From the IMG/VR virus record IMGVR_UViG_3300029982_000015: 64,000 nucleotides of DNA; one strand, 5' to 3'. The translations under genes were made by a program, and so were the position numbers. Below, in pieces: positions 1,767-12,264 of this stretch. Under the pieces are notes generated by a model. That model saw nothing but the letters and a program-made list of their open reading frames with translations, made no database searches and was not told where the DNA came from. Within the stretch, counting starts at the first letter, position 1. Every line of letters starts with the position of its first letter. The DNA is from a virus. Lineage: Duplodnaviria; Heunggongvirae; Uroviricota; Caudoviricetes.

Positions 1767-2738
1767 ATGGCTATTAAGAAATCCGCTCCCGATGCCGCCG
1801 CTGTCGCCGCCCTCTCCGCTCAACTCATGGGACAGACCGCCGCGAAGCCGAAACTGAGTACCGCCCCCACCGAGAAGAAGTTCGCTGACCGTGCCAATTG
1901 GACGGGCGTCCTAACATTCGGTCTGGTGACGTTGGGTATCAAAACGTTCAAAGCTACCGACGAAGAGAAGGTCTCCTTCAATCGCGTTTACGTTACCAAC
2001 CCTGAGGAAGTCACGAAGGGTGCGGCACCCAAGTACGCCCAGTTGAAGCAGGGTGGCATGGTTGACGCCGAGAATAAGGCAATCGCTGCCGACTTGATTC
2101 TGTCAGGCTACAAGGTCACCGAAGATGAGTTTGTTGTCATCTCCGATGAGGAGAAGAAGTCCTGCATGGTCGGCTCCGACAAGCGAATGGAGATTGTCGA
2201 GTTTGTCAAGGTCAGCGAAATCGACCCCATCTACTTCGCCTCCGCCGAATACGTCGCAGCCGACAAGGGCTTCGACAAGCCGTTCGACCTGCTCCGGCGT
2301 GGTATGATTGCCCGTGGTGTGGTCGCCATCGCCAAGTCCAATCAACGTGGCCGCGAACAGACTCTGATTCTCCGCCCCTACGGCAAGAATGGCATCACCG
2401 CTCACTACATGTACTTCGACAATGAAGTCCGTGATTTCGACAAGTGGGCGACGACTACCCTCAATGACAAGGAAGTCGAAATCGCCGGGATGCTCATCGA
2501 CGCCCTGACGGACACCTTCGACCCCACTGAGTACAGCGATGGTTACATCCGCACCCTCAAGGGTCTCGTCAATGACAAGATTGAAGGTAAGGTGACGGCT
2601 CTCACAGCACCCATTGCTGCCCCGGTCGCCGACCCCAAGACGGACATCATGAGTGTTCTGGCTGCTTCGCTGAACGCCCCTGCTGTAACCGCCAAGAAGG
2701 CGAAGAAAGCCGCAAAGGCGAAGGCCGCAGCAGCTTAA
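1767..2738 (+). CDS. ku: Ku-family DNA end-binding protein with Lys/Ala-rich C-terminal tail
   Basis: N-terminal NWTGVLTFGLVTLGIKTFKAT matches the bacterial Ku core signature (WKGxISFGLVxIPVKLY); C-terminal KKAKKAAKAKAAAA tail as in mycobacterial Ku. Confidence 0.7.
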   Translation: MAIKKSAPDAAAVAALSAQLMGQTAAKPKLSTAPTEKKFADRANWTGVLTFGLVTLGIKTFKATDEEKVSFNRVYVTNPEEVTKGAAPKYAQLKQGGMVDAENKAIAADLILSGYKVTEDEFVVISDEEKKSCMVGSDKRMEIVEFVKVSEIDPIYFASAEYVAADKGFDKPFDLLRRGMIARGVVAIAKSNQRGREQTLILRPYGKNGITAHYMYFDNEVRDFDKWATTTLNDKEVEIAGMLIDALTDTFDPTEYSDGYIRTLKGLVNDKIEGKVTALTAPIAAPVADPKTDIMSVLAASLNAPAVTAKKAKKAAKAKAAAA

Positions 2739-3025
2739 CCCGAGACGGGCCTGAGGCCGGGGCCGACAAGCCCCGGCAAGGTTCGCATAGGAGACCTATG
2801 TTTAACGTGATGGCACGGGTGGAAGGGAAGCTGCTTTGGCGTCCTTTTGGAGCCATTGATGAAGCCAAACAAGTGGTTGACCCATTGCAACGGAGCCTGT
2901 CCATTACACCAACTTCAATGACGCATTAGAGGCTATTCACGCCACACATTGAGGAGGATGGTCATGTTGACCATTACCCTTATCACACTTTGCAACACAG
3001 TCAATTGGAAATAAGGAGAATCATC

Positions 3026-3508
3026 GTGGCAACTTCGAAGCATGTAGCGGGGTTTGGGCTTTTTGCGTTTCTGACCGGATTAGCCTTGGGTGCCTTCGCA
3101 ACCAAGCGGGAAGATGACGACCTCTTTGGTGGTGTCGTCGGCTATTCTGGGTGCGCGTGTTGCAATAAGGAGGATGAGGCTGTCGATGAATTGGACGACA
3201 CGCCCAAGACCACCACCCTCATCGACAGCCTCGAAGACATTGAAGTACCGGGCGACAAGGCTGACCTGTTGAAAGTCCGCGTACTCGGTCTGGAACGCGC
3301 AAAACTGGTCGCCATGTGGGGCTCCAAGGGTGTGAATCATGACCAGCCGACCGTGTTTCAGCGGTTGAACGACCTGACCCCGGAGCATCTGGTCAACATC
3401 AAGAACAACAGTCTGGCCGTGACCGAAGATGAGCGGCGTATCATCACCAGCATCCTTGAAGACCGCGTTGCCTCGGGAGAAGTTGACCCCGATGTACTCG
3501 GTGTCTAA
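3026..3508 (+). CDS. membrane-anchored hypothetical protein
   Basis: AAGGAG SD 7 nt before GTG 3026; N-terminal TM helix GFGLFAFLTGLALGAF; the ORF-track TTG start at 2990 is less likely. Confidence 0.4.
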   Translation: MATSKHVAGFGLFAFLTGLALGAFATKREDDDLFGGVVGYSGCACCNKEDEAVDELDDTPKTTTLIDSLEDIEVPGDKADLLKVRVLGLERAKLVAMWGSKGVNHDQPTVFQRLNDLTPEHLVNIKNNSLAVTEDERRIITSILEDRVASGEVDPDVLGV

Positions 3509-3688
3509 CCCCACCCGGTAGGCAGTGTCATTAGGCACTGCCCATGGAGATGCAAATGAGATTCATGTTTCCAGCCGACGCGCTGAATCCGAGAAAGATT
3601 GACGAATACTTCAAGCCTCAGGCTGAGGTACTTGCGCCCGAGGGCTACGCGCTATTCTCCATGGAGAACAAAACGGATTTGGCATAAT

Positions 3689-3967
3689 ATGGCAATCATC
3701 ACGATATGCGAATGCGGACTGGCGAAGTGCTATCACGAGAATCACAACCCTCTTGCCTATCGCTATCAAGACGGCAAGGTACACTGTGGCGGGTACACTC
3801 CCCGGCTCCTCCCGTTTGGTCAGAGTGCGAAGGATGAACTCGAACTCTACAAGATAGCTCTTGAAATGGCTGCACGTGAGGTTATTAACCCCGAAGGCAC
3901 GTTCGGTGAGCAAGTGAAACGCAACGAGAAAAAGGAACGCTGGCTGCAACGAGCCCGGAGCTATTAG
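3689..3967 (+). CDS. small Cys/His-containing hypothetical protein
   Basis: ATG 3689 in frame with ORF 3599..3967; ICECGLAKCYHENH and HCGG motifs. Confidence 0.35.
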   Translation: MAIITICECGLAKCYHENHNPLAYRYQDGKVHCGGYTPRLLPFGQSAKDELELYKIALEMAAREVINPEGTFGEQVKRNEKKERWLQRARSY

Positions 3968-4101
3968 AATGACGATGGTACCCGCCGATAACTTCTGTGC
4001 AACGATCCACGCCAATATTGACAATGAGGGATTGACAGATGCTCAGTTCCGCGAGTTCGTTCGCAACACGCTACCTATCGTAGAATACAAAAGACCGAAG
4101 A

Positions 4102-10574: not shown

Positions 10575-11009
10575 ATGAACCGCACCCTGTTCGAAGAAAA
10601 TGTCTATCTGTCGCTCGTTGACGAGGGGGCTACACTCTTCGAACAGGGTAATCATCTCGCGGCTCACAAGTGTTTCTTGAAAGCCTTCCAGATGCACCCG
10701 GAATCACCCATCACTTTGTTCAACCTCGGTCGGTCTCTGGAGGAGTTGAGGGACATCAGGTCGATTGATTTCTATGAGGCAGCAGTCTCGATGGGGAGCG
10801 TTAACGCCTCCTACCAGCTTGCCACTATTTATAGTCAAAACTCATCCCCCGGATACAAAGAAGCTACGATTCGACACCTGAACCTTTATCTGAATAACAC
10901 CCGTGATACCGATGAGTGCCTCCAATGGGCAAAACAACGGCTCAACGAACTCGCTCCAGCACCAAGCAAGCCAGTATTGGTCTGGAGCAAAGGTAAAAGA
11001 GTAGCATAA
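10575..11009 (+). CDS. Sel1/TPR-like repeat protein
   Basis: Two ~36-aa repeats with the A-x-Y-x-L-A pattern (FLKAFQMHPE..., YQLATIYSQN...). Confidence 0.4.
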   Translation: MNRTLFEENVYLSLVDEGATLFEQGNHLAAHKCFLKAFQMHPESPITLFNLGRSLEELRDIRSIDFYEAAVSMGSVNASYQLATIYSQNSSPGYKEATIRHLNLYLNNTRDTDECLQWAKQRLNELAPAPSKPVLVWSKGKRVA

Positions 11010-11025
11010 AATTTTTCTGAAAAAA

Positions 11026-11056
11026 CTAACTAAAACCAACTCCGGTTCGGTATACT
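11026..11056 (+). promoter_or_regulatory. reiterated phage promoter; leaderless
   Basis: CTAACTAAAACC...CGGTATACT; ATG 11063 is 6 nt after the -10 box. Confidence 0.55.
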
Positions 11057-11062
11057 GTGGGT

Positions 11063-11452
11063 ATGGGCAAGAAGGCCAAGACGAAGTTCCCCACTAAGGC
11101 GCAGTTGAATGCGCTGAATATCCACAACGGCCACAACCTCGCTGACCTCACCAAAGACAAGCTATTCATAAGCTTCACCCCAGCCAGTACAGGCCGAGGC
11201 GGTCGGTCGGCTCACTTCCGCGTCTCCCACATCGGGTACCAGTCCGACCCCACTGCCCATTTTTTGGATTATGGATGTAAAACATTCACGGTGTGGGGTG
11301 GTAAGGCTGGTCGGGAGAAAGTTTTGGTCGATGTCATCGCATGGACAAACGCAAAGTATGGTGAACGGGAGTGGGTGAAAGACCCCTTCGGCTCCTATCA
11401 GGATGCACAGGTGATTGCCCTTGCTTGGGAGAAAGTGGAGGCGGCAAAGTGA
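11063..11452 (+). CDS. hypothetical protein
   Basis: ATG 11063 (MGKKAKTKF) placed by promoter geometry; the track start at 11057 is GTG. Confidence 0.5.
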   Translation: MGKKAKTKFPTKAQLNALNIHNGHNLADLTKDKLFISFTPASTGRGGRSAHFRVSHIGYQSDPTAHFLDYGCKTFTVWGGKAGREKVLVDVIAWTNAKYGEREWVKDPFGSYQDAQVIALAWEKVEAAK

Positions 11453-12264
11453 TTAAGGCCGAGTTACTAACCGAGACGAATGAACTCCACTTCCAGCGTA
11501 TGTTGTTGTCGGCGACCTATGGCTTTCAAGAGAAGCATAACGGCCATCGGCTGATTATCTGCAAGCAGGATGGGCAACTCCGCATGTTCAATCGTGAAGG
11601 CGATCCCTCCAGCAAGGCTCTCCACCCCCGCATCAAGACTGCCCTTCTATCACACCGGCTCAGCATGTTTGTAATCGACGGTGAATTGGTCGGCGGAACC
11701 TTCTATATCTTTGACGCTCTGGTGCTCGGGGATGAAGCTATCAACAACGACGCATATGAGTATCGCGAAGCTCGGTACCACGCTGAATTCGACAATATCT
11801 CAAGTCAAATCAGTGTAGTCCCGACCGCACGGACGGCGGAAGAGAAGCGGCTCCTGTGGGACGCAGTGCTGGCATCGCGTGGCGAGGGCATCGTCTCCAA
11901 GAACATGACCGTAAAATATACCCAAGGCATGGCGGGGGCTCACTGGAAGCTGAAATTTTTGAAGTCGGCAGAAGCTGTGGTTATAGGCCCTAGTCCAGAG
12001 GGAAAAGACAGCGTTGAGATTGGCATGTGGGACTCAAACGGTAGAATGCACCGCATCTCCGGCCTCTCGCTCCGCAATAAATACCGGGTCGCACCCGGCA
12101 CTGTTTTGGAGGTTCGTTTCCTTTATGCTACGAAAGAACTTCACATCGTTCAGCCGGTACTTGTTCGTGTACGCACCGATAAACGCGCTGCGGACTGTAA
12201 GTTAACCCAACTTGTCCCTTACATCAACAAAAATTGGGTAAAAAGCGAACTATCCCATGTTTAA
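11449..12264 (+). CDS. minimal ATP-dependent DNA ligase
   Basis: Motif I EKHNGHR (KxNGxR), motif III FVIDGELV, motif IV EGIVSK, motif V WKLK; GTG start overlaps the upstream stop (GTGA); ATG 11501 is an alternative. Confidence 0.7.
   Translation: MIKAELLTETNELHFQRMLLSATYGFQEKHNGHRLIICKQDGQLRMFNREGDPSSKALHPRIKTALLSHRLSMFVIDGELVGGTFYIFDALVLGDEAINNDAYEYREARYHAEFDNISSQISVVPTARTAEEKRLLWDAVLASRGEGIVSKNMTVKYTQGMAGAHWKLKFLKSAEAVVIGPSPEGKDSVEIGMWDSNGRMHRISGLSLRNKYRVAPGTVLEVRFLYATKELHIVQPVLVRVRTDKRAADCKLTQLVPYINKNWVKSELSHV

Follow-up and report, generated by a model that had tools for sequence, protein, structure and literature searches.

Does a bacteriophage that encodes Ku, a protein which binds DNA ends, also supply the enzyme that seals the bound ends, and do the two proteins work together? 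The question is raised by a stretch of 64,000 nucleotides (further called the window) of IMG/VR record IMGVR_UViG_3300029982_000015, a virus of the Caudoviricetes, in which a gene for a bacterial-type Ku (1767..2738, + strand) is followed on the same strand by a gene for a minimal ATP-dependent DNA ligase (11449..12264, +). An earlier interpretation, made from the letters alone (the sequence-only reading), described the two as a non-homologous end joining (NHEJ) pair lying ~9 kb apart; measured from 2738 to 11449, the interval is 8.7 kb. Both family assignments and the pairing are supported by the analysis presented here, but the ligase is not a LigD and is probably a general phage ligase. The reading to which we incline, with modest confidence, is that Ku brings in the minimal ligase encoded by the same phage, so that ligatable ends are joined, and that this ligase also seals replication nicks.

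The Ku gene starts with ATG and encodes a protein of 323 amino acids, which is matched by Pfam PF02735 (104.7 bits, cut-off 25; E=7.6e-30), by PHROG 4873 'Ku-like DNA end binding' (E=7e-36) and by the NCBIfam equivalog TIGR02772 Ku_bact (180 bits, cut-off 150), the latter over profile positions 1-259 of 259. Among solved structures in the PDB it matches bacterial Ku from B. subtilis and from M. tuberculosis, with E-values from 2.6e-30 to 3.5e-23, the former value belonging to B. subtilis 9vnq. The Ku assignment of the sequence-only reading is thus borne out by the PF02735 hidden Markov model (HMM). Ku is the sole Pfam family in the protein, as in the single-domain bacterial type (~30-40 kDa), which is devoid of the eukaryotic vWA and SAP domains. 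The AlphaFold2 (AF2) model of the monomer is modest (pLDDT 62.9), and a fold search with it returned Ku chains exclusively. Along the protein, an N-terminal extension (~aa 1-41) is followed by the Ku core (~aa 42-240) and then by a minimal C-terminal region, and the Lys/Ala tail (aa 308-323), which is basic, comes last. The minimal C-terminal region holds a DIMSVLAASL helix, of which the pattern D-I-M-x-x-L-A-A-S-L is kept in the alignment of the phage clade. The basic extended C-terminus reads KKAKKAAKAKAAAA, and its final 16 residues are TAKKAKKAAKAKAAAA, so the lysine-rich tail noticed earlier is real. By its sequence, the phage Ku retains all three parts of bacterial Ku, i.e., the core, the minimal C-terminus and the basic extended C-terminus. 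The N-terminal extension (window 1767-1889), with the consensus A-L-S-A-x-L-M-G ... K-P-x-L-x-T-A-P-A-E-K, is present in all Ku proteins of the phage clade and absent from bacterial Ku; in the AF2 model it is of low confidence.

The ligase gene starts with GTG, which overlaps the stop codon of the preceding open reading frame (ORF), and is preceded by GGAGG 7 nt upstream. The same start is used by the metagenome gene call P0001 (100% identity and coverage), and the homologues all begin MI(K/Q)AELL. The product, predicted at ~270 residues and confirmed as 271, consists of nucleotidyltransferase and OB domains, lacks an N-terminal DNA-binding domain and scores 51.9 bits with Pfam PF01068 DNA_ligase_A_M (cut-off 26.2), in agreement with the earlier assignment. 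Pfam PF09414 RNA_ligase reached 25.7 bits, just under its cut-off of 27, and no LigA (NAD-dependent) family was reported in the Pfam scan; the RNA-specific or NAD-dependent enzyme that would have spoken against the sequence-only reading was thus not what these profiles indicated. Motifs I, III, IV and V, claimed earlier, are all present: motif I, K29-H-N-G-H-R34, with the catalytic Lys29; motif III, FVIDGELV (D77, E79); motif IV, EGIVSK (E146, G147); and motif V, HWKLKF (K167, K169). To these can be added motif IIIa, FYIFDAL (F88, D89), and motif VI, RVRTDK (R242, D244, K245), located in the OB domain. What the earlier claim had passed over is that motif I carries Asn in place of the Asp of canonical KxDGxR. 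Residues D77/E79, F88/D89, E146/G147 and K167/K169 are invariant or nearly so across the ligase family alignments, and R242, D244 and K245 are invariant among 36 homologues, 31-83% identical to the window protein, that constitute the ligase profile.

A single-sequence search of PDB with the ligase was marginal; the 45 distinct chains retrieved with the 36-sequence profile are ATP-dependent DNA ligases without exception. The AF2 model built from the same alignment (pLDDT 93.6) has a beta-rich C-terminal domain, and its top Foldseek matches are DNA ligases only, with a query TM-score of up to 0.77 for DNA-bound closed LIG1/LIG3; the list also comprises the Mtb LigD ligase domain (E ~1e-14), Lig E (6gdr), T4 ligase and a Rhizobium phage ligase. 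No RNA ligase was found among the profile or fold matches of the 271-residue protein. Profiles and model alike indicate an ATP-dependent ligase of the DNA type, neither an RNA ligase nor an NAD-dependent enzyme. The best curated profile is that of the LigD ligase domain, yet the scores stay far below the cut-offs: the top NCBIfam models are TIGR02779 (72.9 bits, cut-off 227.75), TIGR02776 (62.8 bits, cut-off 373.2) and PRK08224, which is below its cut-off as well. No LigD polymerase (POL/AEP) or phosphoesterase (PE) domain was found in ~50 scanned window ORFs or in the scanned ORFs of the related locus L010. Because of the sub-threshold scores and the missing domains, the enzyme is not a LigD family member; functionally it would resemble the LigD ligase domain or LigC, the cellular back-up NHEJ ligase of mycobacteria. 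It shares the nucleotidyltransferase and OB architecture, the size range (~260-350 aa), the lack of a DNA-binding domain and a complete set of motifs I-VI with the minimal ligases of Chlorella virus PBCV-1, bacterial Lig E and mycobacterial LigC, Lig E being among the fold matches. It differs from these in being 14-22% identical to any solved ligase, in its KxNGxR motif I and in its genomic coupling to Ku.

The unusual motif I deserves a closer look. In KHNGHR the residues K29, G32 and R34 are kept and Asn31 stands where DNA ligases normally have Asp. This Asp matters in the Chlorella virus ligase, whose D29A variant is defective on adenylated DNA; the corresponding mutant of LigIV is proficient with the same substrate, and the natural residue of T4 Rnl2 at this position is His (PMC6035275). 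Together with the RNA_ligase score just under the threshold, the missing Asp might be taken as a sign that the protein ligates RNA, belongs to the capping-type enzymes or is a relic devoid of activity, which we regard as very improbable. Asn31 is present in at least 90% of the 36 homologues, while K29, E79, D89, E146, G147, K169, R242, D244 and K245 are invariant, and this pattern indicates that the variant is under selection and has not arisen by decay. The canonical residue is found in the sister lineage L010/L012/L014, which has KHDGHR, and in the distant members P0046-P0049, which have KxDGxR; in the ligases of L008 and L011 the motif reads KFNGEY, with the Arg displaced by one position. 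DNA_ligase_A_M lies above its cut-off, the matches among known structures are to DNA ligases, and the OB domain carries motif VI (RxDK). Moreover, a bona fide RNA ligase, i.e., a fusion of HNH endonuclease and Rnl-type RNA ligase, is encoded separately at 19318-20358 (+), so that an RNA-repair role of the 271-residue enzyme is unnecessary. With the conserved Asn, nature has in effect run an experiment on a residue that is catalytic in DNA ligases.

Are the two genes kept together? For this comparison loci (L numbers) were fetched from IMG/VR via the ligase alignment and then searched for Ku by tblastn and HMM. Ku lies upstream of the ligase on the same strand in 9 of the 10 ligase-ascertained viral loci (38-45% identity) with 10 kb of upstream sequence, and two truncated loci add to this number. 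The distance between the genes in this arrangement is 8.6 kb in L008, 7.9 kb in L015, 5.5 kb in L016/L017 and 3.2 kb in L013; Ku is also upstream and on the same strand in L029 and in a 413-kb contig. The window coding is on the + strand almost throughout, and the order of its lineage, rIIA-rIIB-Ku-...-(MVP-like)-...-ligase, recurs in a 75.6-kb contig and in the 413-kb one. In a further lineage the genes are adjacent, with only 8-10 bp between the Ku stop codon and the ligase ATG (L010/L018, L012/L019 and L014), and L009, which is truncated within Ku, shows the same adjacency. There, a ribosome-binding site (aaggagcc) lies between Ku and the ligase, the sole promoter-like site is located upstream of Ku, the flanking genes are on the opposite strand and the neighbours are otherwise rearranged. 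Because of the short gap, the single upstream promoter-like site, the intervening ribosome-binding site and the opposite-strand flanks, Ku and the ligase form an operon in the L010 lineage. Altogether, the pair is kept in at least six diverged lineages with 30-45% mutual identity in both proteins, and the pairwise identities of Ku and ligase co-vary (r=0.95 for 36 pairs from 9 loci), although the correlation is partly driven by close pairs. The view that Ku and the ligase belong together is thereby given real support from comparison, as they co-occur in at least six lineages and form an operon in one.

How might such a pair act? It was reported that bacterial Ku threads onto and bridges DNA ends and recruits LigD via the minimal C-terminal helix and the core, and that Ku can also support the ligase domain of LigD in isolation (PMC13201618). 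By analogy, a homodimer of the phage Ku would thread onto double-stranded DNA ends, shield them from exonucleases and hold two ends together, and its core and minimal C-terminal helix would recruit and stimulate the 271-residue ligase, which would then seal the break. Since the ligase has no polymerase or phosphoesterase domain, joining would be limited to already ligatable ends (cohesive or blunt, with 3'-OH and 5'-P), such as restriction-type cuts in the phage DNA or the phage termini. Most probably the enzyme would also perform ordinary nick sealing. Direct support was obtained for the two protein identities, long-term co-retention, the operon in one lineage and a shared promoter-like element; from these we infer a contact between Ku and the ligase, an end-joining activity and a purpose, be it break repair and counter-defence or the joining of genome ends. 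The pair may thereby perform the end joining or circularisation that had been suggested from the letters alone. The likeness to the Ku-LigD systems of M. tuberculosis, B. subtilis and P. aeruginosa lies in the same single-domain Ku with core, minimal C-terminus and basic tail, and in an ATP-dependent ligase encoded with Ku, adjacent and co-oriented in one phage lineage. The phage ligase is, in contrast, a catalytic core of 271 residues, and since it carries neither AEP polymerase nor 3'-phosphoesterase, it would not process ends as LigD does. The clade of the window further differs in the Asn of motif I, in viral encoding and in the extra, conserved Ku N-terminal extension of ~40 aa.

Several observations weigh against the two proteins acting as a pair. 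In most lineages 3-12 kb and many genes separate Ku from the ligase within a block whose gene order is broadly conserved (rIIA-rIIB-Ku ... ligase ... RNA ligase ... Clp), so the co-occurrence could be plain synteny. The most constant neighbour of Ku is rIIB and not the ligase, as the order rIIA-rIIB-Ku (window 413-1636, +; L027-L029) is found in nearly every Ku-bearing contig of the lineage. The loci were ascertained mainly via the ligase, and the frequency of a ligase given Ku rests on very few contigs that are long enough. The ligase itself lacks, in motif I, the Asp that is catalytically important in the Chlorella virus enzyme. Distant members of its family are also found without a nearby Ku, in the jumbo Tunturiibacter phage Tunturi_5 (gp61) and in L020-L024. 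Finally, L011 keeps the ligase, while a 569-aa DUF2779 protein occupies the Ku slot between flanking genes 80-95% identical in amino acids to those of L008, where Ku holds the same slot. The L011 locus is decisive for the independence of the ligase from Ku, and from the persistence of the ligase there and in Ku-less phages it follows that the enzyme probably serves the phage as its general ligase and is not reserved for NHEJ.

These observations feed the main rival explanation, according to which the two proteins have independent jobs: the ligase would be a nick sealer of replication and recombination, the role that such enzymes have in T4 and T7 and in most jumbo phages, Ku alone would protect ends from RecBCD/AddAB-type nucleases, like Mu Gam or T4 gp2, and their co-occurrence would reflect early-region synteny. 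A single ligase for replication, dependent on either ATP or NAD, is typical of jumbo phages (PMC7824862), and a second DNA ligase was not found among ~50 scanned ORFs of the 64-kb window. Yet synteny does not account well for an operon with a gap of 8-10 bp in the very lineage whose gene order is otherwise rearranged. Ku also keeps the minimal C-terminal helix, which in bacteria recruits LigD and would be unneeded for pure end capping, and the closest curated profiles of the ligase are those of NHEJ ligases. Independent jobs are thus a serious possibility, to which we give less credence than to recruitment of the ligase by Ku.

The DUF2779 protein of L011 (L011:157-1866, against Ku at L008:331-1362) contains a Cas4-like Cys cluster, and its first ~25 residues resemble the Ku extension of the neighbouring lineage (z=5.7, 0/300 shuffles). 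This likeness could mean that both proteins carry a common tag, or that an in-frame replacement has left a relic behind.

Another explanation is that the phage Ku cooperates with LigD or LigC of the host and that the phage ligase has no part in end joining. Such use of a host enzyme was shown before, as the Ku of mycobacteriophages Omega and Corndog works together with LigD of the host (Pitcher 2006, cited in both PMC12848934 and PMC3706429), and the window Ku, which belongs to the same PHROG 4873 and is ~30% identical to theirs, keeps the LigD-recruiting C-terminal region. In Omega and Corndog (clusters J and O) Ku and host LigD circularise genomes with 4-nt cos ends. These phages are siphoviruses of mycobacteria of ~70-110 kb for which no DNA ligase was reported, whereas here a jumbo rII phage has a Ku-linked ligase that is co-retained and, in one lineage, predicted to be co-transcribed with Ku. 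In addition, most bacteria are devoid of LigD, and dependence on a host ligase is accordingly considered unlikely. The other phage end-binder to be compared is Gam of phage Mu, which, as cited in 10.1101/2020.04.14.041137, binds and protects DNA ends and promotes end joining with host ligase. Mu Gam represents a separate and very divergent family, whereas the window Ku is canonical by curated profiles and has LigD-type C-terminal recruitment elements and a phage ligase partner.

The sequences upstream of the two genes give a further link between them. Repeat finding revealed an intergenic element composed of an A/T-rich tract, CTAGCCAAAA, ~13 nt and then GGTATACT. The last part occurs in 12 copies in the window, 11 of them on the + strand, against 0.77 expected, and none of 100 shuffles reached 12. 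Copies are located at 1753-1760, 8577-8584, 9984-9991, 11049-11056, 18515-18522, 27063-27070, 27422-27429, 27797-27804, 28177-28184, 33327-33334 and 46873-46880. One promoter-like element (1711..1762, +; repeat families D1/D2) lies upstream of Ku, with an A/T-rich tract, CCAAAA, a spacer of ~13 nt and GGTATACT at 1753-1760. A second copy (11007..11058, +), with GGTATACT at 11049-11056, stands 6 nt before the ATG at 11063, which opens a two-gene unit ending with the ligase. Copies end at 1760 (Ku ATG 1767), 11056 (ATG 11063), 28184 (PARP ATG 28191) and 33334 (CCA-adding enzyme ATG 33341), and the distance from TATACT to ATG is exactly 6 nt in at least six copies; this fixed distance suggests that mRNAs from the element are leaderless. 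In the relatives L029, L015 and L013 one copy of the element stands before Ku and another before the ligase; L004 has a copy before the ligase, and L027 and L028 have one before Ku. The two genes would thus belong to one promoter class, which points to shared timing, not to a specific regulon, because the same class drives many other genes. A generic scan of the window for sigma-70 promoters and terminators gave nothing above shuffled expectation.

Where does the pair come from? The window belongs to an uncultivated lineage of jumbo phages bearing rIIA/rIIB that is found in metagenomes only, on contigs of 250-450 kb. Exact and related copies of both genes are located on metagenome contigs of up to 247-438 kb, which also carry rIIA/rIIB, a Clp-like ATPase, a 1182-aa protein with a weak tail-sheath match and other phage genes. 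Near-identical DNA for window positions 1-13000 was not found among 50,697 deposited phage records. In the same records Ku, searched with the window Ku and an actinobacterial Ku, was present only in mycobacteriophages and one 5.5-kb fragment, with none of the window's kind, and a 2025 survey likewise found phage Ku only in mycobacteriophages and one Streptomyces phage (PMC11936186). The ligase gave two weak matches in the phage collection, Tunturi_5 (28% identity) and Micrococcus phage Kurnik. Single-sequence IMG/VR scans with Ku and with the ligase returned nothing; an IMG/VR scan with the Ku alignment also returned nothing, its patterns being too specific, and Ku genes are nonetheless present in IMG/VR. 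A metagenome scan with the Ku alignment yielded mostly short contigs, which are uninformative about the ligase. The ligase alignment found no relatives in 185,579 species genomes and so pointed to no source in a cell or a prophage.

No report of a phage with Ku and its own DNA ligase was found in the open-access literature, and phage Ku proteins studied so far depend on host LigD. Judged by sequence, what appears to be new is that both partners are virus-encoded, that the enzyme is ligase-only and that the phages are jumbo phages outside actinobacteriophages. Most bacteria have no NHEJ. If the proposed cooperation is true, a virus with both an end-binder and a sealer could rejoin broken or linear DNA in such hosts, and this would bear on the survival of very large phage genomes in the presence of host nucleases as well as on illegitimate recombination and mosaicism in phages. 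With 323 and 271 aa, the proteins would be among the smallest natural Ku-ligase pairs, which would make them attractive for genome editing in bacteria that lack NHEJ.

Some neighbours were considered as further components of a Ku-ligase module. The ORF at 11063..11452 (+; gene call L001 7103-7492) encodes 129 aa with no Pfam or NCBIfam match and is translationally coupled to the ligase by a GTGA stop/start overlap. By tblastn it is found only in the identical contigs L001-L003, and it was rejected as a third component, since it is not conserved beside the ligase in relatives; a TPR gene was rejected as well, having no informative domain. The gene at 10030..10572 (+) encodes an A1S_2505-family phage non-structural protein of 180 aa (NCBIfam NF049995, E=2.5e-36; PHROG 2072) with the motif FGSNExGxHGGGAA, which opens the invariant pattern FGSNExGxHGGGAA...QG...PT...GCGLAG...NCxFD...W. 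In all lineages examined this gene stands no more than a few kb away from the ligase; it adjoins it in L004, L008, L011, L015 and L029, and lies immediately downstream of Ku-ligase in L009, L010 and L018. A profile search of PDB with the protein returned nothing, and its membership of the module is uncertain.

Genes for histidine phosphatases (His_Phos_1) are located near the ligase in several lineages, in the window at 14408-15253 (+), and two of them (L010:6348-7625, -, and L010:11827-12852, -) flank the Ku-ligase operon; their products might heal ends as phosphatases in DNA or RNA repair. The ligase family also has a distant metagenome member, P0048 (415 aa), with a WGR domain (PF05406) fused at the N-terminus. 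The WGR domain is the break-sensing domain of PARP1-3.

A PARP of 501 aa is encoded at 28191-29696 (+). The sequence-only reading had named it a WGR-PARP; the catalytic domain is solid (E=5e-21), with the H-Y-E residues in the alignment, whereas WGR stayed below threshold (E=0.011, 16.2 bits against 22), and PARP_reg was below threshold too. Its best solved relative by sequence is the vault PARP4 (E=2e-15), just ahead of PARP1. An MVP-like gene (851 aa, 4721-7276, +), with Pfam Vault_3 and MVP_shoulder, is found 2 kb downstream of Ku, and only in this lineage, so that one phage carries two vault-type components. Metagenomes contain 4456 homologues of the MVP-like protein (E<=1e-5), and their contigs reach 894 kb; phage MVPs were reported once, in a preprint that detected no vPARP in the phages concerned (10.1101/2023.11.10.566534). 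A functional pair of Ku and MVP was rejected, as MVP is confined to the window's own lineage. It is tempting to speculate that Ku, the ligase and the H-Y-E PARP, expressed from one leaderless-type promoter class, might constitute a self-contained viral response to DNA breaks that would reseal cuts made by host restriction, CRISPR or other nucleases, i.e., counter-defence by repair without host NHEJ, with the Ku slot as an exchangeable cassette (Ku or DUF2779 nuclease) bearing a shared N-terminal tag; this extended scenario is a doubtful one.

The remaining genes touch other processes. The CCA-adding enzyme (33341-34615, +) and the HNH/Rnl RNA ligase suggest a set for tRNA or RNA repair; no tRNA genes were detected in the window by ARAGORN, and an Rfam scan of it gave nothing at gathering score. 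The window also encodes a TnpB/Cas12f-like transposon nuclease (25692-26900, +), a helicase-methyltransferase fusion of 1018 aa (37317-40373, +), a GmrSD_N-like (DUF262) protein (44857-45432, +) and, at 60019-63996 (+), a 1325-aa ORF with a C-terminal domain of the Xre/MbcA/ParS-type antitoxins.

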